A stretch of DNA of 64,000 bases from Candidatus Magasanikbacteria bacterium RIFCSPHIGHO2_02_FULL_48_18 (GTDB taxonomy: Bacteria > Patescibacteriota > Patescibacteriia > Magasanikbacterales > UBA922). A program made the position numbers and the translations under genes. The stretch's first letter is position 1. The number at the start of each line of letters is the position of its first letter. Shown one piece after another: positions 21,717 to 57,262 of this stretch. The stretch lies in NCBI GenBank assembly GCA_001784285.1, contig MFQC01000007.1:4197-68196 (forward strand), in the 5' to 3' direction. The notes below the pieces were generated by a model. The model saw only the letters and a list, made by a program, of their open reading frames with translations. It did no database searches and was not told the DNA's origin.

Positions 21717-22742
21717 ATGCGAACGATATTGGTCACCGGCGGTGCGGGATTTATTGGATCCAATTTTATTCACTACTGGATGGACGCATACCCCGAAGAT
21801 CGAGTTTTGAATGTTGATCTTTTGACGTACGCGGGCAATTTGGAAAATTTAAAATCGGTAAGCGAAGACCTACGCTATACGTTTATTCGGGCGGATATTA
21901 CGGATTTTGAAGTTATGAAACGCGCCATGCAGGGGGTGGATTTTGTGGTCAATTTTGCGGCAGAGTCTCATAATGACCGTGCGGTTCTTGATCCGGGTGT
22001 TTTTGTCCGAACCAATGTATTGGGGACTCAAATTTTACTTGAGGCCGCTCGTCAAGCTGGCGTCAAACGGTTTCATCATATTTCCACGTGTGAAGTGTTT
22101 GGTGATCTCGCACTTGATGAAGACCGCGCGTTCAAAGAAGACGACGCATATGTGCCTCGAACGCCATACAACGCGTCAAAAGCCGGAGCAAACCACGAAG
22201 TGATGGCGTATTTTCATACGTATGGCATGCCGGTGACCATCAGCCACTGCTCCAATAATTACGGGCCGTATCAATTTCCGGAAAAATTAATTCCGTTGTT
22301 TACCACGAACGCGCTTGAGGACAAACCGTTGCCGCTCTTCAAGAGCAGTGCCAATAGAAGAGAATGGATTCATGTGGATGACCACTCCCGCGCGATTGAT
22401 ATGATTTTACAGAAAGGGACCGTTGGCGAAGCGTACAACATTGGAACTGGGGTGGAAAAAAGCATTGAAGACATTACGGATATTATTTTGGACGCTTTAC
22501 AAAAACCGGAGTCATTAAAAACCTATGTGCCGGATCGGCTTGGCCATGATCGGCGGTATCTCCTTGACACATCAAAAATTCGTTCCAAGCTTGGATGGAA
22601 GCCGGAGAAGGGATTTGAAGAGGGGATACGCGAGACCATTCGCTGGTATGTTGATCATCGCGAGTGGTGGGAACGGGTGAAAAGCGGCGCATATCAGGAA
22701 TATTACAAGACATATTATTATGATAAAATTGGCAAACAATAA
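21717..22742 (+). CDS. rfbB: dTDP-glucose 4,6-dehydratase
   Basis: MRTILVTGGAGFIGSNF, YNASKAG (YxxxK), ...HISTCEVFGDL... region; 341 aa. Classic RmlB. Confidence 0.9.
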   Translation: MRTILVTGGAGFIGSNFIHYWMDAYPEDRVLNVDLLTYAGNLENLKSVSEDLRYTFIRADITDFEVMKRAMQGVDFVVNFAAESHNDRAVLDPGVFVRTNVLGTQILLEAARQAGVKRFHHISTCEVFGDLALDEDRAFKEDDAYVPRTPYNASKAGANHEVMAYFHTYGMPVTISHCSNNYGPYQFPEKLIPLFTTNALEDKPLPLFKSSANRREWIHVDDHSRAIDMILQKGTVGEAYNIGTGVEKSIEDITDIILDALQKPESLKTYVPDRLGHDRRYLLDTSKIRSKLGWKPEKGFEEGIRETIRWYVDHREWWERVKSGAYQEYYKTYYYDKIGKQ

Positions 22743-47335: not shown

Positions 47336-50300
47336 ATGACGTACACGCATCGCCCGCTTTTCCACTGGATGACGGCGGCATGTCTTCTTTCATCCCTTCT
47401 TTTTGCGCCGTTTTTGGTGGTCCGCGCGCAAGTCTCTGACGAAATCCTTACGGAAGAACCTGTTGTCTCTCTTCCAGAAACAGCCACAGACCTGGAGGAC
47501 AGCAGACCACTTTCCTACACAGCCCTTATGCGGCGGTTTCATGCGCTTCGCACACAGGATCAGGATACTGTGGAGGATGCCGAGCGCACAGCGCTAAGAG
47601 ATGATCTTGCCGCATTTCTTGAACAAGAAAAAATCAAGACTGGCGGGTTACCTGTTTCTCAAGAAAAACAGCGCGCGTATATTGACCGGCTCGAAGCCAT
47701 GATACAGATATTGACGCCGCAAGAAACTCCTGAAGAATCGTGGTGGAATCGTTTTGTCCGCACGATTACGGAATGGTTTCACGAGGACACAGCGCTCACG
47801 TTTGATGAAAAAGAATTTCGCGCGCCGGACTTTCCATCGCAATTTCAATTTGCTGATGACGTTATTGAAGTAAAAGAGCTCAAAAATCCTGTGGTTAGAG
47901 TTGCTGAAGGGGAAACAATAACCGATGCGCTCAAAAAATTGGTGCGCATTGAGGTGGCGTCTGCCGATACCACGCTTCCGGTCCTTGCGGATATCAAACC
48001 GGACGGAGAAGCCGTTATTCCAGAAGAGATACGCACCCTTGCCAAAGATTTGGACAACAATCCTGTTGCGATTATGAACTATGTGCAAAATGCCATTCAG
48101 TATGAGCCGTATTTTGGCGCAAAAAAAGGAAGCGTGGGATGTTTGCATGAAAAGGCATGCAATGATGTTGACGCCTCGTCGCTCACGATTGCGCTTTTGC
48201 GCGCCGCCGGGATTCCGGCTCGGTATAAGACGAGCATTGCAGTTTTTTCCATGGATCAGTTGAAGTCCCTTCTTGGCGTTGACGAGGCAAACACGGTCTA
48301 CGCCGCGTTCGCATCCAATCATGTGCCGGTGTACACTATTTCCGGCAATCCGCTTCCGGAAAAATTGGACGATGCGAATCTTTCGGGTGAGACCCATCTT
48401 GCGCTGGAATGGGTTTTTGCCGAAGCATTTTATGATTATGACGAACGCGGAGCCAATATCCCCAATACGCTTGAGGCGGGTGGCGCGCAGACGTCGGAGG
48501 AGCTTCACGCGCTTCTCGCGCCATTTCCAAAAAAGCAATGGATTCCGATCGATGTCATTGTTCGTTCCTATATACACACGAAAAATCCGATTCTCGCCGA
48601 GTCGGCAAATTTTAACGCTGAGTCATTTTTCTATGATTATCTCGCGTATCAAGGAAATTTGGATCCGGTGGAAAAATACGCCGAAGAACTGAAAACAAAA
48701 ACAGGAAAAACGCTCGAAAGTTCTTTGTCCACGAAGGGGTACACCGAAAAGTCTTTGGATATTATCCCGATTACCTTGCCCTATCTCTTGGGCGAAGGAT
48801 CAGCAGAAGACGGAAGCGTGGTTGCGCCAGAGGCATTTTCAATCCTTCCGGAAAGTTTTCGCTATCAGCTAACGCTTTCCCTCCTTCAAAGTTTCACTAA
48901 TGAAAGTGTCTTGGAAACGACATTCCTGGCAAGTGTCGTGAATAATGCAGAACTTAATGTTTATTATGAAGGGTTTACCCCGGAAGACCAGGCAATTATT
49001 GATAGTTATGGCGGCATTCATCTCACCCCGGCGGAACTGGTTGATATTCGGGCAATGCTGAGGACAGAGGATGCCATATTTTCCGGAACAAAAGCGATTG
49101 CCATTGGCGAATCGCTCGTGATGAAATTTCGGCTGACCCTGAACGGGGAAGAATTACATATTGATGAAAAGTTTTCCACAGCCGGAAACCATGAGGGTGT
49201 GTATCTTGCGTTTTCAAAAACAATTCCCCATCCATTTTTGATCGACGACAATGATCCGGACAAAAACAGCAAAATTCTTCTTGAAGGAAATACAGCGGTG
49301 GCGCGAGAGTATCTCCGCACGATTGAAAAACAAGGGGCACTCCTCAAACAATCACTTGATTATGAATATCAAACGCTTGTCACGCGCGCGGTCGTCACGC
49401 AAAATCGTATTTTGAATACGGCAAACGGCGTGCCGACCACGTTTGACTTCCAAGGCCTTACGATTGACGCGACCACCTTTGTCGCGGATTATTCCAATCG
49501 GGGAAATTACAAAAATCATCGCAAAGATTTTCGGCTTCTTTGGGGGCTTATGGCTTCGTATGAAGAAGGACAGGTCTTTACCGACCTTGCCGGCTTGAAC
49601 GGCATTTCAACGGTCAAAGGCCTGCAATATGCCTATGGAAATCCCGGGACCTATACCATTCATATTATTACCAGCGCCAATAAAGCGGTGATCGACACCT
49701 TAACGCTTTCCGAAAATACGAAAGAGAATATGAAGGCGGATGTGGATAAAGGGAATACCGTTATTACGCCGCAAAAAGCAATCGAAAAAGGCAAATGGAA
49801 GGGTGTCCTCTATATTTCGCTTGATCCCACCTGGACCGGCACATACGCGATCGGCGAGCAGGTGAGTCAAAATGGGGGATTTACGACAGATGATTTGGAA
49901 GTGGCAAGCGTGTATGACCCGGAGGTTGCATCTTGGATAGATTATTATTTTAAAACCATCCAGCTCCTCTCTGAGAATGCCAAGTTTGGTTATCAAGATA
50001 TGCCCAAATCTATTGGAAGTGTCGCTTGCACGCTCAAAGAAACAACGTTTAATGCCATCAAAAGTGAATCTGGCTGGAAAACGGAATATGGATTTCCCTG
50101 TCGGAAGGATATTATTTCGTTTGGTCCTGTCGAACATATATATATTTTGGCTACAAATGCCATAAAATTTTACAGAACCGGGCAATATAATTACTGGACA
50201 AAACCGGCAAATGTTCTTCAAAAAATAGATAAATACATCGAAGAAAATACAGCCATAAGCAGTCAAGATATTCAAGGGAATAAAGATCTTGGACTTATAA

Positions 50301-51577
50301 AAATGGGGAATGATTTTACAACATATGGTGTGAGTTTTTCTACTATTTTGGGAACATACAAGACAGGTGCTTGTGAAAATCAAAATTTGACATATTGTCC
50401 CGATGATGAGGAAAGTGTGGTGTATTATAGTCCAAACGGCAATGGCGGGGATGTGTTTCGGGTTATAGGTGAACTGTTGGAAAAATTGGATGTACAAAAA
50501 AATGGCATACCTAAATATGCGGTTAAACAGGTTGGTTTCCCGGTAAGTCATGAAGCATATGCGGGCACAAGCCCGATTGGCACCCAGGGCACATATCAAA
50601 ATTTTGTCAATGGGCAATTGTACAAACAAACAAATGCATCAAAAAGTGTTGCGTACGTCCCTCAGGCGATTGTGAATGTATTCAATGGAGAAAATGGGAC
50701 ATGGGGAAAACTCGGATTTCCTTCAGGGGATCCCTATTCGTGGAAAGGGACACTGGCACAGGATTTTGAGACAGGAAGAATTGAAGGGTGGGGATCTGGC
50801 TATGCCGTGAGTCCGATTTGGTATTCACAAAAAGATAGTCATCACTTCCTCATCGTGAATTTGAATCCAAATGCAAGCAAGCGGGCGTGCTTCAAATCAT
50901 ATATTGGGCTTGCTGATGGCGTTTCAATTGGAGACAAAAATGTGGATGGAACATTAAAAAAACAATTTAGTGCACGGCATTTTGGCGATATTTTATTCTC
51001 GACGGTTGCAAGCGTGATTGCAAATAGAAAATTATCAGGGTATGAACCGGTTGCCGGGATAAACGCGGATTTCGTTGATAATAGTGCTCCAATGGGGATC
51101 AATTTTAGTCTTGGTCATGATTATACGGGGTGGCGTGACTTCTGGACTGCGATGGGAATATCAAAAAACAACGAGGTTATATTTAGCGGGGATAAGGGAG
51201 TGGTAGAGGAAAAATATAAGCACGCCATCGTGGGGGGAGGACCAAAAATTATTACAAAGGGGGAGATGACCAAGACTTCTTGTTCTGATTTGATCGGTTT
51301 TGCAAATTGTAATATTGCCCATGATCAAAGAACAGCGGTGGGTATCACTGGCCAAAATTTTATGATTGTTTTAGTGACTGACGATGGCCCCTTTGATGAT
51401 TTGCCCAGCATATTGAACACCTATGAAAAAAGTTATGGAAAAGTAAAAGAGGCAAATATGTTCGATGGCGGCGGTTCTCCGTCTTTGATATTTGAAAATG
51501 GAATTAAAAGAGAAGGGGGAAATACATTGTCTTCTCTCCTGCTTATGTATTCAGGAGATGCCTGCGCAAATCTATGA
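47336..51577 (+). CDS. giant secreted protein (1413 aa) with transglutaminase-like cysteine-protease core and a C-terminal phosphodiester-glycosidase-like (NAGPA/DUF2233-type) domain
   Basis: Signal peptide MTYTHRPLFHWMTAACLLSSLLFAPFLVVRAQV. Transglutaminase-core motif ...KKGSVGCLHEKACNDVDASSLTIALLRAAGIPARYKT. C-terminal ~250 aa ending ...ANMFDGGGSPSLIFENG, a tentative NAGPA-like match. Stop overlaps the next start (ATGA). Confidence 0.65.
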   Translation: MTYTHRPLFHWMTAACLLSSLLFAPFLVVRAQVSDEILTEEPVVSLPETATDLEDSRPLSYTALMRRFHALRTQDQDTVEDAERTALRDDLAAFLEQEKIKTGGLPVSQEKQRAYIDRLEAMIQILTPQETPEESWWNRFVRTITEWFHEDTALTFDEKEFRAPDFPSQFQFADDVIEVKELKNPVVRVAEGETITDALKKLVRIEVASADTTLPVLADIKPDGEAVIPEEIRTLAKDLDNNPVAIMNYVQNAIQYEPYFGAKKGSVGCLHEKACNDVDASSLTIALLRAAGIPARYKTSIAVFSMDQLKSLLGVDEANTVYAAFASNHVPVYTISGNPLPEKLDDANLSGETHLALEWVFAEAFYDYDERGANIPNTLEAGGAQTSEELHALLAPFPKKQWIPIDVIVRSYIHTKNPILAESANFNAESFFYDYLAYQGNLDPVEKYAEELKTKTGKTLESSLSTKGYTEKSLDIIPITLPYLLGEGSAEDGSVVAPEAFSILPESFRYQLTLSLLQSFTNESVLETTFLASVVNNAELNVYYEGFTPEDQAIIDSYGGIHLTPAELVDIRAMLRTEDAIFSGTKAIAIGESLVMKFRLTLNGEELHIDEKFSTAGNHEGVYLAFSKTIPHPFLIDDNDPDKNSKILLEGNTAVAREYLRTIEKQGALLKQSLDYEYQTLVTRAVVTQNRILNTANGVPTTFDFQGLTIDATTFVADYSNRGNYKNHRKDFRLLWGLMASYEEGQVFTDLAGLNGISTVKGLQYAYGNPGTYTIHIITSANKAVIDTLTLSENTKENMKADVDKGNTVITPQKAIEKGKWKGVLYISLDPTWTGTYAIGEQVSQNGGFTTDDLEVASVYDPEVASWIDYYFKTIQLLSENAKFGYQDMPKSIGSVACTLKETTFNAIKSESGWKTEYGFPCRKDIISFGPVEHIYILATNAIKFYRTGQYNYWTKPANVLQKIDKYIEENTAISSQDIQGNKDLGLIKMGNDFTTYGVSFSTILGTYKTGACENQNLTYCPDDEESVVYYSPNGNGGDVFRVIGELLEKLDVQKNGIPKYAVKQVGFPVSHEAYAGTSPIGTQGTYQNFVNGQLYKQTNASKSVAYVPQAIVNVFNGENGTWGKLGFPSGDPYSWKGTLAQDFETGRIEGWGSGYAVSPIWYSQKDSHHFLIVNLNPNASKRACFKSYIGLADGVSIGDKNVDGTLKKQFSARHFGDILFSTVASVIANRKLSGYEPVAGINADFVDNSAPMGINFSLGHDYTGWRDFWTAMGISKNNEVIFSGDKGVVEEKYKHAIVGGGPKIITKGEMTKTSCSDLIGFANCNIAHDQRTAVGITGQNFMIVLVTDDGPFDDLPSILNTYEKSYGKVKEANMFDGGGSPSLIFENGIKREGGNTLSSLLLMYSGDACANL

Positions 51578-52119
51578 GCGGACAATGTAAAAAAGTAAAA
51601 ATTATATTTTTTATTATTTTCCTTTCTAGTGTGTCGTTGTGGCTATCCACAATCATGACACAACGAAGCGCTCCCTTTTCAGGAGAAGATACTCCTGAAT
51701 GGCGGTGGGGATTTCCTATTCAGTATGTGATAGATAACAGAGAGGGCGAATCAGTAGATCATATAAGTTTCAGCGATGATGTCATTCTTTGGGATAGGTT
51801 TAGTTTCAATGTCATTTTTTTCCTGCTTTTCTTTTTTACGGCATTGGGCGGTCTTTTATGGAAACAAGTACCCGGAATGATTTATTTTATCGGGGTATGT
51901 GTTGTGGCGCTCCTTTGGGTGAATCTTTTTTTTGTCAGCGGACCGTTTGAATTTTTTGTTCATTCATGGGAAGCCCGTCCGAGGCCTTTAACAATTATAG
52001 AAAAAAAATCAATCGTTGGCTCACTGTTGGTTATTGACGCAGTTTTGCTCCTCTTTTCCATGGGTGTGTATTGGCTGGTGGGTCATATGAAGGCAAAAAA
52101 AGTACGATATGAATTATGA
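51574..52119 (+). CDS. hypothetical integral membrane protein (translationally coupled between the two giant genes)
   Basis: 181 aa with about 4-5 TM helices; ATGA overlaps at both ends (51574-51577 and 52116-52119). Confidence 0.45.
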   Translation: MSGQCKKVKIIFFIIFLSSVSLWLSTIMTQRSAPFSGEDTPEWRWGFPIQYVIDNREGESVDHISFSDDVILWDRFSFNVIFFLLFFFTALGGLLWKQVPGMIYFIGVCVVALLWVNLFFVSGPFEFFVHSWEARPRPLTIIEKKSIVGSLLVIDAVLLLFSMGVYWLVGHMKAKKVRYEL

Positions 52120-55106
52120 GTATAGATGTGACACAAACGAAAAGTAAAATAGTATCAAAAGTAATCCTCCGAAAAATAAATAATAACTTTTTTCATATGA
52201 CCACGCGCACCATTGCCATACTCCTCACGTTCTCGCTTGTGAGCCTGGAGTTTTTTCCTGCCTTTCAAGTAATAGCTCAGGAAGAAAGAGGCGAAACCCA
52301 GCTCGAAACAAACGAGCCGCGCGCTCTTCCAAATGCGCCACTTCCGCTGTTTGATGGGAGGGATCGGTTTGTGGAACCGATCCCTGTTATTCAAGAATTA
52401 CACCCTGATTTTCGCGCGCTTGAGGAGCGTGAGCTTCCTCGGCCCATACAGGCGCGCGTGATTGACGGGCGGACCCCATTTGAGAAGCGCATGCTTCAGT
52501 TTTCCTCAAAAGCTTTGCAGGAGCAGTTTCAAAAAGGAAATATCGCGCCTCAGCAAAAAGGCGAGGTTCGCTTGCACAAGGTCAGTGAGCGGGCGTCTTC
52601 ATGGGTGCGCGCCCTCTTTGCAGATGACGTCCATGCGGCAGAGTTTGTGCCCATTATGGATTTTTATGATGGGATTGAAGATGTCCCTATTGATTATGCG
52701 TTACAGTATCTGTCACAGCACCAAAATTTGGATGGCAGTTTTGGCGCGTATAGTCGGTATGAGACAACCTTTTTGGTTTTCTTTTCACTGATTGAGTGGG
52801 GGAAAACCGACAATGATCAGTATGATCTCGCGCTTGAGTATTTGACAAACGCAACCCCAACAAACAATCGTGAACGCGCGTTCAAAATTCGCGTGCTTTT
52901 TGCCCTGGAACAACCGTACGCGCCCCTGCTTTCCGAACTTTTGGCAACGCAAAACGACGACAACGGATTTGGATTCGACGCATATTATGCCAGTGATGTA
53001 TTAACGAGTCTTGAAGTGCTTTTAACACTCAGCCAAAGTGAACTTTTAAATGCGAATTTTCTTACGTGGGGAAAAACATTTGGGTATGTGGCAAATCACA
53101 TTGAAAGTGATGGAACCATTCGTTTCACCGAGGAAAGCGCTCCCAGTTTTTATCTCATGAATCGAGTCGCGAGAGATATGTTTCCCATGAATGGGTATGT
53201 CGTTGAGCTCAATGGAAAGACATACGATATTGAAGATATAACGAATTCGGTCGTAGGGTTTTTGGACAATCAGGTTAAAACAAATCCGGAAACGCTCCTT
53301 GGTGCGGTCGACCCAATCGACTATGCGCTCACGGCCGAAACATTGGCTGTGTATGAAAAACAAAGCGCTGTAGCAGTAAAAAATTTGTTGGAAGAAATGC
53401 AACAGGCAGATGGCGGTTTTGGCGGTATTTTGCCGACGATGTATGCGCTCTCCGCGCTTGCACAGGGCGATCTTTCACTCACAGGTCTGGTTCCTCTTTC
53501 CACGCTCACAACCGGGGTTCCTGGGTCATTGAATGTTTCTATTTATAACAACGGCATCGCGCCGGTTTCTTCCGGGAAAGTGTACCTCTTTGCAGATCAA
53601 TACCAGCTGGACTTTTTGTTTGATTTTGCAGGACAAAACGTTGTTTTGCCGCCCGACGCAACAATGGAACTTGAGTGGCCGCTTGATAATACAAACATGT
53701 TTGTTGGGACAACAGAGTTTCGATATTATGCCGAAGCTCTAAATGAAATGCGGTATACCAATAACTGGATCCAAAAAACATTCACATTTGCAAAACATCC
53801 GCAAAATATGCCGGCGTCGCCCGTTTCTTATATTGCCTATAAAAGCGTGTTCCAAGGAACGCCGGCGGTTCAATTTGTATGGGCGAAAAAATCCGATCCA
53901 TTGCGGAAAAACTATATCATTATGTCTCGCGTAAAGGGTGCAACTCAGTGGAAATTTTCCGCTGTTGACCCAAATGCCGATCAGATTATTCTCCATTCTT
54001 TGGAGCAGGGGAAAGTATACGAAGTGACCGTCGGGTCGCTCGCCATGAATGGCACAAGCGTGATATTTCATTCGACCATTACCGACGTAACGGTGAGTGC
54101 CAGTCAGGCAAATTATTTGGGAAACATGAATGGGGTTGTCACCGTGGATCAAACACCGGCGCAGGGCATTACCCTTGCCGGGTATGTGATCGGCGCCTTG
54201 AGCGGTGACAATGGCGTATTCGCAAAGAATAATCTTCCCAACGGGTCACAGTTTGTTTTTCCGTTTGATCCGCAGTATGTTCCGCTCAAAATTCGTTATA
54301 CCGTCAAACCCGGACAAACAACCAACAACGTCCGCGTATTTACGAGCTTCACTCCGGACACCACGCCTCCAGTTGGTTCAAATATCGCCATTCTCGAGGC
54401 CGTCAATAACGCAATTTCGAATAATACAGAAGTCACTATTGTTGCGAATGGAACTGATGCGGTTGCGATAAAAGATGCGGATTTCTTTTTTTATAATCCT
54501 ACCGAGGGCATCTGGGAGTATCTTGGGACGTCTCCTGTACAAAATGGCGAGGCAGTCATACCGTGGTTTGTGCCGGACACACTCAAAGGCAGTGAATACA
54601 AAATTCAGGCAATGTTTTCCGACTATCAAGGAAATATATCGAGTCCAATTGTCTTTGGTCCGTTTATCATTGACGATACCACGCCACCAATAGTTGATAC
54701 GGATGGAGACGGTATTCCAGATACCAGCGATAATTGTGTATTTGTGTCAAATCCCACTCAAGGAGATTATGACCAAGATGGGAAAGGGGATCATTGTGAT
54801 CTTCCGAAGGGAGAAGTAACAGGAGACGGCGCTATTAATGTGGTCGATGTGCAATGCACAATTTTAACCGCATTGTGGGAGTTGGCCGGGAAAAATGGGC
54901 CAATGCCCATTTGTCTTTCACCACAGGAAGTGGATAATGCGGATCTCAATTGTGATGGCGCGGTTGATATTGTCGATGTTCAAATGACTATTCTTCTTTC
55001 GCTTGATTTGGAGTGTGATGCCGGAACCGGCATGTGCTCGCCGATATTTGTCACTGAGCTTGACGCAAATCAAGATAATATCGCGGATACGTGTCAGGCG
55101 TTATAA
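52116..55106 (+). CDS. large secreted protein (~996 aa) with prenyltransferase/terpene-cyclase-type alpha/alpha-toroid repeats, Ig-like beta regions, one thrombospondin type-3 repeat and two dockerin-like repeats
   Basis: Q-x2-DG-[SG]-[FW]-G repeats (QNLDGSFGAY, QNDDNGFGFD, QQADGGFGGI). TSP3 repeat DTDGDGIPDTSDNCVFVSNPTQGDYDQDGKGDHCD. Dockerin-like TGDGAINVVDVQCTIL and NCDGAVDIVDVQMTIL. Possible alternative start at ATG 52197 (MTTRTIAILL..., signal-like). Confidence 0.6.
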   Translation: MSIDVTQTKSKIVSKVILRKINNNFFHMTTRTIAILLTFSLVSLEFFPAFQVIAQEERGETQLETNEPRALPNAPLPLFDGRDRFVEPIPVIQELHPDFRALEERELPRPIQARVIDGRTPFEKRMLQFSSKALQEQFQKGNIAPQQKGEVRLHKVSERASSWVRALFADDVHAAEFVPIMDFYDGIEDVPIDYALQYLSQHQNLDGSFGAYSRYETTFLVFFSLIEWGKTDNDQYDLALEYLTNATPTNNRERAFKIRVLFALEQPYAPLLSELLATQNDDNGFGFDAYYASDVLTSLEVLLTLSQSELLNANFLTWGKTFGYVANHIESDGTIRFTEESAPSFYLMNRVARDMFPMNGYVVELNGKTYDIEDITNSVVGFLDNQVKTNPETLLGAVDPIDYALTAETLAVYEKQSAVAVKNLLEEMQQADGGFGGILPTMYALSALAQGDLSLTGLVPLSTLTTGVPGSLNVSIYNNGIAPVSSGKVYLFADQYQLDFLFDFAGQNVVLPPDATMELEWPLDNTNMFVGTTEFRYYAEALNEMRYTNNWIQKTFTFAKHPQNMPASPVSYIAYKSVFQGTPAVQFVWAKKSDPLRKNYIIMSRVKGATQWKFSAVDPNADQIILHSLEQGKVYEVTVGSLAMNGTSVIFHSTITDVTVSASQANYLGNMNGVVTVDQTPAQGITLAGYVIGALSGDNGVFAKNNLPNGSQFVFPFDPQYVPLKIRYTVKPGQTTNNVRVFTSFTPDTTPPVGSNIAILEAVNNAISNNTEVTIVANGTDAVAIKDADFFFYNPTEGIWEYLGTSPVQNGEAVIPWFVPDTLKGSEYKIQAMFSDYQGNISSPIVFGPFIIDDTTPPIVDTDGDGIPDTSDNCVFVSNPTQGDYDQDGKGDHCDLPKGEVTGDGAINVVDVQCTILTALWELAGKNGPMPICLSPQEVDNADLNCDGAVDIVDVQMTILLSLDLECDAGTGMCSPIFVTELDANQDNIADTCQAL

Positions 55107-55182: not shown

Positions 55183-55830
55183 ATGATGCCCTCTTTTCGC
55201 CTCCGCCATTTTCTTCTTCTCTTTTTTTTCGTTGTGATGGGTTTTTTTATTGCATTTCCCTTTGGAATTGTATCGCACGGGAAAAAACTCTCCTATAAAA
55301 CAGGAGAAGATGTGGTACCGGTCAATGTCGCCATTGTTTTTGGCGCAGGACTTACCGCAAACGACCAGCCATCAGACGTACTGTACGATCGGTTGCGCGT
55401 CGCGTCCGAGCTTTTTCATCAGGGAAAAGTGACGACCCTCCTCGTGTCCGGCGATAATCGGTTTGAAGATCACAATGAACCCGAGGTCATGAAAAAGAGT
55501 CTTGTTGACGATTTTTCTGTTCCCGAAGGCGCTATTGTGGCCGATTATGCCGGTCGGCGGACATACGATACCTGTATTCGGGCCAAAACCATTTGGGGCG
55601 TTGACAGGGCGGTCTTGGTGTCGCAGGGGTTTCATTTGTATCGCGCCATTTGGACGTGCGAGCATATGGGTATTGAAAGCTCGGGGATTTCCGCGAGCTT
55701 GCGTCCTTATATATTTGGGACACAGTATAAGGTGCGGGAGGTTCTTGCCATTTACAAAGCGTTTTCTGACGTGTATTTTTTGTCTCCGGCATATATCGGC
55801 GGCGAATTTATTATTGATATTGATGTATGA
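55183..55830 (+). CDS. DUF218 (SanA/ElyC/YdcF-like) membrane-anchored protein
   Basis: N-terminal TM, then VAIVFGAGL...LLVSGDNRF...VLVSQGFHLYRA, which are DUF218 signature motifs. ORF-track start 55126 is TTG, so ATG 55183 is used. Confidence 0.6.
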   Translation: MMPSFRLRHFLLLFFFVVMGFFIAFPFGIVSHGKKLSYKTGEDVVPVNVAIVFGAGLTANDQPSDVLYDRLRVASELFHQGKVTTLLVSGDNRFEDHNEPEVMKKSLVDDFSVPEGAIVADYAGRRTYDTCIRAKTIWGVDRAVLVSQGFHLYRAIWTCEHMGIESSGISASLRPYIFGTQYKVREVLAIYKAFSDVYFLSPAYIGGEFIIDIDV

Positions 55831-56321
55831 AACGTCAGCTCTTTTTTTCTCTCGGTGTGCTGAGTAGCTGCACCATTGGCTTGTATTTTTTTTCCCATAT
55901 CTTCAGCACCCTTGATCGGGCGTATTTTCGCGCGAACGAAGGCATTTTGACGCATTCAGAAACGATAGTAACCAACGGATCAATGGTGACAAATTATACC
56001 TACAGCCACACGCCGTTTTTTTATCCCATGATGTTCTTTTCTTTTGCCGCGCTTTTTGTGCCGATTTTTTTGGTATGGTTTTTAAGCGTGCGATTTTTTC
56101 GTGTTTCTGTTGGCAAAAAAACGTATGTCCAAAGCCTTTTCTTCCCCCTTGTCTACGCGCTCATCAGTATCATTTCATTTTTTATTGTTATGGATCCCGC
56201 TCTCGGCTGGGAGTATTCGGTGGGTATGGCGCTCATGTTTATCGAGATTGGGCTGGTGTTTACCGTTACGGCGATCGTGAATGGTATCATGTGGAAAAAA
56301 AAGAAAAAGAAGTCTTTCTAA
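55827..56321 (+). CDS. hypothetical integral membrane protein
   Basis: 164 aa, 4 TM helices, C-terminal KKKKKKSF; ATGA overlap with the previous gene. Confidence 0.4.
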   Translation: MKRQLFFSLGVLSSCTIGLYFFSHIFSTLDRAYFRANEGILTHSETIVTNGSMVTNYTYSHTPFFYPMMFFSFAALFVPIFLVWFLSVRFFRVSVGKKTYVQSLFFPLVYALISIISFFIVMDPALGWEYSVGMALMFIEIGLVFTVTAIVNGIMWKKKKKKSF

Positions 56322-56425
56322 GGTTATCTATGCCGCAAAAATATTGGTTCAAACCAGAAGGGGGATAAAAAGGGACAATGTGGATTATAAAAAATAGCTA
56401 AAATAAGCTATTATTTTCTATTTTT

Positions 56426-56462
56426 GTTACTTGTTGACATGGTAGGTAACAAAAGGTAGTAT
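56426..56462 (+). promoter_or_regulatory. promoter (TTGACA-17-TAGTAT) with overlapping inverted-repeat operator for the HTH/Doc operon
   Basis: TTGACA 56434-56439; TAGTAT 56457-56462; IR gttac (56426-56430) / gtaac (56446-56450) brackets the -35. Start codon is only 9 nt after the -10, so a short or absent leader. Confidence 0.45.
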
Positions 56463-56470
56463 GTATATGT

Positions 56471-56728
56471 ATGGAAGATAAAAAATTTTTTTCTACCGCT
56501 GAGCTTGCCCTACTCCTTGGCATCAGTCGGGTGGAGGCGTTTCGTAAAATTCAAAAGGGTCAAATCCCGGCGAAAAAAGCAGGACGGAATTTTTTAATTG
56601 CCAAGAAAGATGTGGCGCACCTGCTCTCGCGTGAGCTAACTAATAAGGAAAAGAAAAAAATAGATATGGCAGTTGATAAAGTGATAGAGGAGTATGGCGA
56701 AACGCTAAAATTACTTGGAAAAGAATGA
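56471..56728 (+). CDS. helix-turn-helix DNA-binding protein (excisionase/MerR-like HTH), putative antitoxin of the Doc pair
   Basis: FSTAELALLLGISRVEAFRKIQKGQIPAKKAGRNFLIAKKDV is an HTH_17-type motif; 85 aa. Stop abuts the next ATG. Confidence 0.55.
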   Translation: MEDKKFFSTAELALLLGISRVEAFRKIQKGQIPAKKAGRNFLIAKKDVAHLLSRELTNKEKKKIDMAVDKVIEEYGETLKLLGKE

Positions 56729-56729
56729 T

Positions 56730-57158
56730 ATGGCAAAAATAGCACTAGTAGCCGTGGCAGATGTTGAATATATCGCCCACAGACTTGCCAAGCGGTTCTT
56801 TGAATGGAACGAACCAATTCCAGATTTTGGCACGCGGTTTCCAAACATATTGGAAAGTTGTCTTGCGGTTCCGTTTCAAACATTTGCGCGCCAGACGCTG
56901 TATAAAGGTTTGCTGGGGAAATCATCCATTTTATTTTATGTGATGATAAAGAATCATCCGTTTCAAAATGAGAATAAACGAATTGCAATAACGACACTAC
57001 TTATATTTTTGCGTAGAAATGGGAAATGGCTGAAAGTGGACAATCAAAAATTGTACAATTTTGCAAAGTGGGTGGCGGCGAGCGAGCCGGAAGTAAAGGA
57101 CGCCACAGTGACAGCAATTCGAGATTTTTTACGGAAGTATCTTATTGATATAAGTTGA
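56730..57158 (+). CDS. Fic/Doc-family protein (death-on-curing-like putative toxin)
   Basis: HPFQNENKRIAITTLLIFL resembles the Fic/Doc motif HxFx(D/N)GNKR, with N-E in place of D/N-G; about 143 aa, the size of Doc. Confidence 0.55.
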   Translation: MAKIALVAVADVEYIAHRLAKRFFEWNEPIPDFGTRFPNILESCLAVPFQTFARQTLYKGLLGKSSILFYVMIKNHPFQNENKRIAITTLLIFLRRNGKWLKVDNQKLYNFAKWVAASEPEVKDATVTAIRDFLRKYLIDIS

Positions 57159-57262
57159 GAGAAACGCCACGATGGCAGGTGGAATGAGTATGCAATCATA
57201 TAAAAAAATTTATTGTTTTCTATTTGGAAGTATTGCCTTTGCCGGGCATGTAATTTTTTGCC

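Follow-up and report, generated by a model that had tools for sequence, protein, structure and literature searches.

A probable type II toxin-antitoxin operon of Patescibacteria that pairs a Doc-family toxin with an excisionase-like antitoxin and carries a glutamate in the catalytic loop

Introduction

Two short, adjoining genes lie at positions 56471 to 57158 (+ strand) of a stretch of DNA from a Candidatus Magasanikbacteria metagenome-assembled genome (MAG; contig MFQC01000007.1). The whole analysed stretch, 64,000 nucleotides (nt) in length, is referred to as the window. The first gene encodes a small helix-turn-helix (HTH) protein and the second a protein of the Doc toxin family whose catalytic loop has glutamate at a position held by glycine in nearly all of its relatives. 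The locus therefore raises the question of whether the two genes form a toxin-antitoxin (TA) operon of type II, and whether a toxin so altered is likely to be active.

An HTH-antitoxin/Doc-toxin pair with a promoter-operator palindrome had been proposed from the letters of the window (the original prediction), and this proposal was supported, at the level of sequence and modelled structure, by profile matches, fold, conserved pairing and a conserved operator. We regard it as likely that the locus is a chromosomal, autoregulated type II TA operon belonging to a large family of the ultra-small Patescibacteria (candidate phyla radiation, CPR), in which a Doc toxin is paired with an antitoxin composed of a winged HTH (wHTH) domain and a C-terminal helix, and in which the Glu81 allele of the toxin is probably attenuated. 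The features expected of such an operon were present: two small, co-directional, tightly spaced genes whose pairing is conserved across genomes, and an antitoxin with a wHTH domain together with an inverted repeat, the predicted operator, straddling the -35 box of its own promoter.

The toxin gene and its product

The toxin gene was assigned to 56730..57158 (+ strand) and encodes 142 amino acids, one fewer than the 143 first given. The start was placed at ATG 56730 because the N-termini of the closest homologues read MAKI...; a 147-amino-acid product beginning at an in-frame TTG (56715) was rejected on the same ground. The protein was scored against profile collections and exceeded the cut-off of both the Fic model PF02661 (30.2 bits, cut-off 24) and the Doc model TIGR01550 DOC_P1 (47.5 bits, cut-off 38.65). 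Sequence matches in the PDB were to Doc of entry 9VZC (E 2e-5) and to P1 Doc (3K33). An AlphaFold2 (AF2) model was computed with 47 homologues (predicted local distance difference test, pLDDT, 85.7), and its best PDB superposition was on P1 Doc chain 3k33_A (probability 1.00; template modelling (TM) score 0.69 with query normalisation and 0.78 with target normalisation). A profile search had been named at the outset as the check on a Fic/Doc fold, and the fold was recovered in each of these comparisons (TIGR01550, PF02661, PDB Doc entries and superposition of the AF2 model). The toxin was 77% identical to relatives that carry the canonical catalytic motif, and its membership of the Doc family by descent is not in doubt.

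In the AF2 model, residues 51-56 (nt 56880-56897) form a short beta-hairpin between helices 2 and 3, at the place occupied in Fic proteins by the target-binding flap. Such a flap is reported to be missing from P1 Doc (PMC4454073).

The antitoxin gene and its product

The antitoxin gene was assigned to 56471..56728 (+ strand; 85 amino acids). Its product scored above cut-off with Pfam PF12728 HTH_17 (31.6 bits, cut-off 27) and with the NCBIfam excisionase model TIGR01764 (30.6 bits, cut-off 28.8), in agreement with the excisionase/MerR-like HTH protein of 85 residues that had been predicted in this position. An AF2 model (pLDDT 86.6) divided it into an excisionase/MerR-like wHTH domain (residues 6-52, nt 56486-56626) and a single long C-terminal helix (residues 58-84, nt 56642-56722). 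The closest folds were mycobacteriophage Pukovnik Xis, which ranked best, BldC, RacA and MerR-type domains.

Homologues of the antitoxin numbered 401, with lengths of 84-85 amino acids. When 40 of them were compared, the C-terminal end, EYGETLKLLGKE, was the most conserved stretch and nearly invariant, and the C-terminus of the window protein agreed with the family consensus. The tail (residues 53-82) gave a weak match to the C-terminal part (positions 44-72) of the Doc-partner model TIGR02609 doc_partner (E 0.039; 14 bits, far below the cut-off of 55.9), which recurred in 4 of the 40 family members (best E 0.0032). Because EYGETLKLLGKE is the most conserved part of the protein and the weak TIGR02609 match is repeated, we infer that the C-terminal helix is the toxin-binding segment. 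No match of the antitoxin to Phd/YefM was obtained in Pfam or NCBIfam at E<=1, and a Pfam scan of the antitoxin tails returned no match.

A short ORF (open reading frame) of 41 amino acids at L105:1295-1420 ends in VKYEKALRKLAYN, which resembles the antitoxin motif. It lies in a 290-nt gap upstream of P0348, a 35%-identical Doc relative for which no partner had been called, and could encode a mini-antitoxin that lacks a DNA-binding domain.

Conservation of the pair in Patescibacteria

Homologues of the toxin were counted among clusters of 90% identity; at least 4566 were found at E<=1e-3, nearly all of them from Patescibacteria. NCBI already gives several the name 'type II toxin-antitoxin system death-on-curing family toxin'. 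Loci were then compared with one genome per species. A toxin relative was encoded at 545 loci, and the best 80 were examined. An HTH_17 antitoxin homologue stood directly upstream of the toxin, with 0-10 nt between the genes, in 78 of these; of the other two, one was cut by a contig end and one had a truncated toxin. A toxin relative of 30% identity, P0388, likewise had an 84-amino-acid HTH_17 gene immediately upstream. The claim that an HTH_17 partner is non-standard for Doc thus stands in relation to P1 Phd-Doc and fails within the clade of the toxin itself, where such a partner is the rule.

The partners given for Fic/Doc proteins in the classical census of type II systems are AbrB, Xre, YhfG and Phd, and a MerR-like HTH is not among them (PMC2701414). 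In the literature on HTH_17/PF12728 antitoxins and on Doc of Patescibacteria, no description of an HTH_17-Doc module was found; the papers retrieved dealt with MerR-COG2856, entry-exclusion proteins or dissolved organic carbon. The combination appears to be undescribed, though each part is known. The module is a regular member of this large, annotated family.

Promoter, operator and translation start

The two genes are co-directional on the + strand and are separated by a 1-nt spacer (TGA-t-ATG), as had been noted. A consensus scan of the upstream region gave a promoter, TTGACA-17-TAGTAT (56434-56462, +), that matched 10 of 12 consensus positions, with the -35 hexamer TTGACA at 56434..56439 and the -10 hexamer TAGTAT at 56457..56462. 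An inverted repeat overlaps this promoter. Its left arm, TTTTGTTAC (56422..56430, +; conserved core TGTTA at 56425-56429), is complementary at 9 of 9 positions to its right arm, GTAACAAAA (56446..56454, +), so that the arms are perfect, 9 bp long and 15 nt apart (TTTTGTTAC-N15-GTAACAAAA); the -35 hexamer lies between the arms and the right arm falls within the promoter spacer. Both the promoter and a shorter form of the repeat (gttac...gtaac) formed part of the original prediction, and the repeat proved longer than was reported there.

The pattern TGTTA-N17-TAACA occurred once in the window, against 0.07 occurrences expected by chance. It was found just upstream of the antitoxin gene, around the -35 box, in 36 of the 80 related loci and was almost absent from the remainder of those loci (~6 kb each). 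A common upstream design was shared by the relatives, in which a TTGAC(A/T) -35 box stands between TGTTA(AC) and (GT)TAACA half-sites and is succeeded by a -10 box and then the ATG; TTGAC(A/T) was in the same position in most relatives. In most related loci the inner core GTTA-N17-TAAC begins 42-46 nt before the ATG, and in the window it begins at -45. The half-site centres in the window are 21 bp apart, a distance of two helical turns, which places both half-sites on the same face of the DNA, with the -35 box between them. The inverted repeat is predicted to be an autoregulatory operator.

Other upstream regions were of variant form. Several of those at L004, L043, L049, L063 and L075 contain, in place of the single split repeat, two full 14-bp palindromes (TTAACATATGTTAA) 29 bp apart, and half-sites of GATAAC, GACAAC or CTTAAG type were seen in other relatives. 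This variation suggests that the operator and the recognition helix of the antitoxin diverge together.

Between the final base of the -10 hexamer (56462) and the A of the antitoxin ATG (56471) there are eight nt, which agrees, within the convention of counting, with the 9 nt stated earlier. This layout predicts an mRNA that is leaderless or has a leader of 1-2 nt. The layout is conserved: a promoter match of at least 9/12 was present in 58 related loci, and in 40 of them the end of the -10 box lies 6-9 nt before the ATG. No Shine-Dalgarno (SD)-like motif was present upstream of the antitoxin gene, and no clear SD sequence was present at the toxin gene. Across the window a loose SD-like tetramer preceded only 7 of the 43 large genes, and a TATAAT-like box was seen ~8 nt before the ATG of several genes, for example those at 21717 and 37289. 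Translation in this genome seems to be initiated largely without SD sites and often from leaderless mRNA. The leaderless transcript that had been proposed is therefore upheld as a layout conserved in the family and set aside as a special feature of the operon, since a genome that barely uses SD sites would show it as a general habit. Translation of the toxin is probably coupled to that of the antitoxin, as the toxin gene has no clear SD sequence and starts 1 nt past the antitoxin stop codon.

Comparison with known toxin-antitoxin systems

The module was compared with P1 Phd-Doc (3K33, 3DD7). Shared features were the Doc fold of the toxin (TM 0.78 normalised to 3k33_A, as above), an HxFx(D/N)xNKR catalytic loop, a two-gene operon with the antitoxin first and an inverted-repeat operator at the promoter, and an antitoxin C-terminus predicted to be helical, as is the segment of Phd that binds Doc. 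The systems differ in the DNA-binding domain of the antitoxin, which is an excisionase/MerR-like wHTH (PF12728) in the window and not a Phd/YefM fold, in the sequence of the toxin (identity only ~20%) and in the catalytic loop (Asn-Glu in the window, Asp-Ala in P1). They also differ in location: P1 Phd-Doc is carried on a plasmid prophage, whereas the window locus is chromosomal in a Patescibacteria genome.

By sequence the closest solved toxin was Doc of Enterococcus faecalis (9VZC, E 2e-5; PMC13034048). Like the window toxin it has Asn at motif position 5 (HCFYNANKR), and its module is likewise chromosomal, with a single palindromic operator (PMC13034048). Residues 52-79 of E. faecalis Phd form a C-terminal helix that binds Doc (PMC13034048), and the C-terminal helix of the window antitoxin is likened to it. 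The N-terminal domain of Phd from E. faecalis is an AbrB-like beta-sheet dome, in contrast to the wHTH of the window antitoxin, and its Doc has Ala where the window toxin has Glu. With the AbrB-type Doc partners described by TIGR02609 the antitoxin shares the weak tail match, which is consistent with a common toxin-binding tail; the N-terminal DNA-binding domains are unrelated, and the tails are at most possible homologues. A precedent for a small MerR/excisionase-like HTH as the DNA-binding module of a type II antitoxin is given by truncated MerR-like HTH antitoxins, which the census found only with PIN toxins (Makarova et al. 2009, PMC2701414); their partner is thus a PIN nuclease, and their additional toxin-binding segment is N-terminal.

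A mechanism was proposed with Phd-Doc and further type II modules as its model as regards DNA binding, neutralisation by a helix and the target of the toxin. The wHTH domain of the antitoxin would bind TGTTAC-N15-GTAACA on either side of the -35 box, and the bound antitoxin would occlude, and so repress, the sigma-70-type promoter of its own operon. The mRNA would be leaderless and the toxin would be translated by coupling across TGA-t-ATG. The C-terminal helix (..EYGETLKLLGKE) would dock on the toxin and neutralise it, as the Phd helices of P1 and E. faecalis do. Free toxin of the family would phosphorylate elongation factor Tu (EF-Tu) and halt translation; in the window, the change Gly81Glu, which falls within the phosphate-binding loop (HPFQN(G>E)NKR), would leave a toxin that is attenuated and otherwise undecayed.

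A Doc toxin with an excisionase/MerR-like HTH antitoxin would on this account be one of the commonest TA modules of Patescibacteria, and the pairing is a further case of antitoxin domain shuffling, itself a familiar theme. The family offers a clean, conserved design of operator and promoter (half-sites TGTTA and TAACA, with 17 nt between them, on the two sides of the -35 box, and a predicted leaderless transcript). In the Gly81Glu allele nature supplies a point mutant of the Doc catalytic loop that bears on the role of an invariant glycine. New are the pairing of HTH_17 with Doc, which appears to be undescribed and has a well-conserved operator, and the natural, recurrent Gly-to-Glu change in the catalytic loop. 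The current understanding of how TA systems work is left unchanged by these findings.

The catalytic loop and Gly81Glu

The catalytic loop, HPFQNENKR, lies at residues 76-84 (nt 56955..56981, +), and the codon of Glu81, GAG in place of a codon for the family Gly, lies at nt 56970-56972 (+). The Doc motif has been published as HxFx(D/N)(A/G)NKR (PMC13034048), and one class of Doc has been defined as HxxxN[A|G]NKRxx[!R] (PMC4454073). The window loop retains the H, F, N, N, K and R of the motif and has Glu, not Ala or Gly, at position 6. It had been described as deviant at two positions. The sequence of the loop and the deviation of Glu from Gly/Ala were upheld; Asn at position 5 is normal, because the HxxxN[A|G]NKR class (PMC4454073) includes it.

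Position 81 was Gly in 243 of the 245 relatives with a readable motif (two sets combined). Among the 120 closest homologues, 119 had HPFxNGNKR, and the sole exception was a 98%-identical variant of the window toxin, from another sequencing run, that also had Glu81. A second sample took the best 150 of the sequences that represent 50%-identity clusters. The motif could be recognised in 125; 124 of these had Gly and one, an 88-amino-acid fragment, had Arg. GAG is one transition away from GGG, and GGA or GGG is used at codon 81 by ~39% of relatives. A sequencing error was rejected as the source of Glu81: the allele was carried by many independent assemblies (at least 24 contigs, 32 blocks of the assembly collection and several MAG accessions, in addition to the 98% variant) and is therefore real. 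General decay of the toxin was rejected as well. At 51 columns that are at least 95% conserved, the window toxin deviates at two (L71V and G81E), a number no greater than the range seen among its relatives.

Further carriers of HPFxNENKR were sought in a metagenome scan (241 million records). Seventeen stretches were returned, four of them in real Doc genes. One (L093) was the sequence of the window itself, and one (L094) was a fragmented Doc of a different subfamily. L096:1049-1486 (- strand) encodes a 145-amino-acid family member with HPFQNENKR that is 56% identical to the window toxin, and L102:2283-2531 encodes HPFQNENKR in a protein 72% identical over the part on the contig; both have an antitoxin gene upstream, and the two come from unrelated metagenomes. 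Because each is nearer to Gly-bearing relatives (63% and 74%, respectively) than to the window toxin, Gly-to-Glu is read from these sequences as having arisen independently at least three times in the HTH_17-Doc family. Glu81 is confined to the lineage of the window and the two independent ones and is not a trait of the family. A change that recurs and is still very rare beside the thousands of family members fits a slightly deleterious or loss-of-function transition; it could also reflect a tolerated or useful one.

We lean, by a modest degree, towards a Glu81 that weakens or abolishes kinase activity, because the Gly is hardly ever replaced and Glu brings a carboxylate into the phosphate-binding loop. 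The extreme form of this position is that Gly81Glu abolished catalysis and that the pair is a decaying remnant or a non-toxic pair acting as a transcription factor. The near-invariance of Gly81 and the negative charge in the phosphate-binding loop, as judged from what is known of Fic/Doc structures, would suit such a pseudo-toxin, and so would the fragmented state of the Glu-variant locus L094 and the finding that relatives with fully decayed motifs still adjoin an HTH_17 gene. It is opposed by the lack of any other decay (both reading frames are intact, in addition to the 2/51 columns given above), by an antitoxin C-terminus that equals the consensus, by a sequence that is identical across many samples and by the tolerance of Ala at this position in active Doc (PMC13034048). 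A fully dead toxin is possible, and we hold it to be rather unlikely.

The opposite proposal, with much the same doubtful standing, is that Gly81Glu is neutral and that the module is an ordinary, fully active Doc TA system. Active Doc toxins can carry Ala there, and the allele is stable in the population and has at least three independent origins, each with an intact partner gene. This is hard to square with the mere 2 of 245 readable motifs that depart from Gly; conservation so nearly total argues for purifying selection against any substitution.

Between these two proposals stands the preferred reading, an attenuated toxin in an otherwise intact operon, and several observations weigh against it. 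Ala occupies the position of Gly81 in both P1 Doc and E. faecalis Doc, so that a side chain is tolerated in active Doc and Glu might be harmless; the presence of the Glu allele in the 98% variant and in two other lineages with intact partners could equally mean that it is functional. On the side of the antitoxin, PDB profile searches, run with the full antitoxin alignment and with the last 36 residues of it, returned no Phd or Doc-partner chain, and the matches obtained were at chance level only (malate dehydrogenase, SiaP, S100). The link between the tail and Doc partners therefore keeps the standing of a suggestion, and homology of the tail with Phd or with AbrB-type partners is a hint that comes from the weak TIGR02609 match. 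Finally, toxicity, neutralisation and DNA binding are all inferred for the HTH_17-Doc family as a whole.

Fic antitoxins and alpha-inh helices place an inhibitory glutamate into the active site. Glu81 might by the same logic be a recurrently selected, built-in brake, a glutamate in the Doc phosphate-binding loop that would mimic the inhibitory one in cis, with kinase activity gated or re-specified and not lost. If this were so, its appearance in at least three lineages with intact partner genes would be convergent evolution. We consider such a brake improbable.

That the protein is a Fic-type AMP-transferase and not a Doc-type kinase is very unlikely. The PF02661 match and the presence of Fic proteins among the lower-ranked structural matches are what such an enzyme would give. 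The loop departs from the Fic motif HxFx(D/E)GNGRxxR, with Lys (Lys83) for the second Gly (NKR) and, in NKRIAIT, no Arg at +3 and hence no counterpart of the second Arg of GNGRxxR, in keeping with the Doc class HxxxN[A|G]NKRxx[!R] (PMC4454073), and the Doc-specific TIGR01550 was above its cut-off, with P1 Doc the best match in both sequence and structure.

Thoroughly decayed catalytic motifs (e.g., NRPFKKDNDKI, SRPFKGGNAQM) were seen in the full-length relatives P0280, P0288, P0337 and P0363. An 88-amino-acid HTH_17 gene lies directly upstream of P0337 (L109:147-811), and pseudo-toxins seem to persist as pairs.

Genomic setting and further observations

Both proteins were identical to entries from Candidatus Magasanikbacteria MAGs (HAZ29107/HAZ29108, OGH77305/OGH77306 and others). 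The module is set in the gene order DUF218 protein, membrane protein, HTH_17 antitoxin, Doc toxin, methylpurine-DNA glycosylase (MPG) and TypA/BipA, with an RNase H-like exonuclease also among the flanking genes. This chromosomal setting was unchanged in every contig examined (the 24 or more that carry the exact toxin), and the DNA of the module was identical in 5 of 6 recovered loci. A mobile-element role for the HTH_17 protein, as excisionase or recombination directionality factor, with Doc adjacent by accident, is scarcely credible: such a role would agree with the TIGR01764 match and with Pukovnik Xis as the best structural match, yet no integrase, recombinase or other mobile-element gene was found among the genes flanking the pair (DUF218, membrane protein, MPG glycosylase and TypA/BipA included), the adjacency is kept at 0-10 nt in 78/80 loci, and the conserved C-terminal helix is absent from simple Xis proteins.

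A terminator-like hairpin with a T run was placed tentatively at 57234..57258 (+), 76 nt past the toxin stop codon and before the MPG glycosylase gene. It was detected by consensus scan only, and terminator-like sites in the region were not above the number expected from shuffled sequence; the operon may end there. An AT-rich hairpin formed by AAAAAATAGCT and AGCTATTATTT (window 56389-56416; 10/11 pairs, 6-nt loop), with a T-rich run after it, lies immediately upstream of the operator and could serve as terminator of the membrane-protein gene at 55827-56321.

In one locus of the same organism (L082:2620-2740), an N run and ~100 nt of unrelated sequence lie between the -10 box and the antitoxin ATG, and a 92-amino-acid antitoxin gene call (P0243) results. 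This difference was not taken as genuine: the N-gap and the sequence inserted within the scaffold are probably an artefact of scaffolding.

Farther upstream of the module, window positions 47336-55106 hold two very large ORFs of 1413 and 996 amino acids. The latter matched a thrombospondin type 3 repeat at 24.3 bits, just below the Pfam cut-off of 25, and both probably encode cell-surface proteins.

The toxin also matched the C-terminal parts of the PADLOC defence-candidate models PDC-S23 (E 2.6e-17), and a 365-amino-acid protein with an N-terminal Doc-like domain adjoins a 1645-amino-acid SNF2-like helicase at L107:2001-3098. Doc domains of this clade are thus also found in larger, possibly defence-related proteins.

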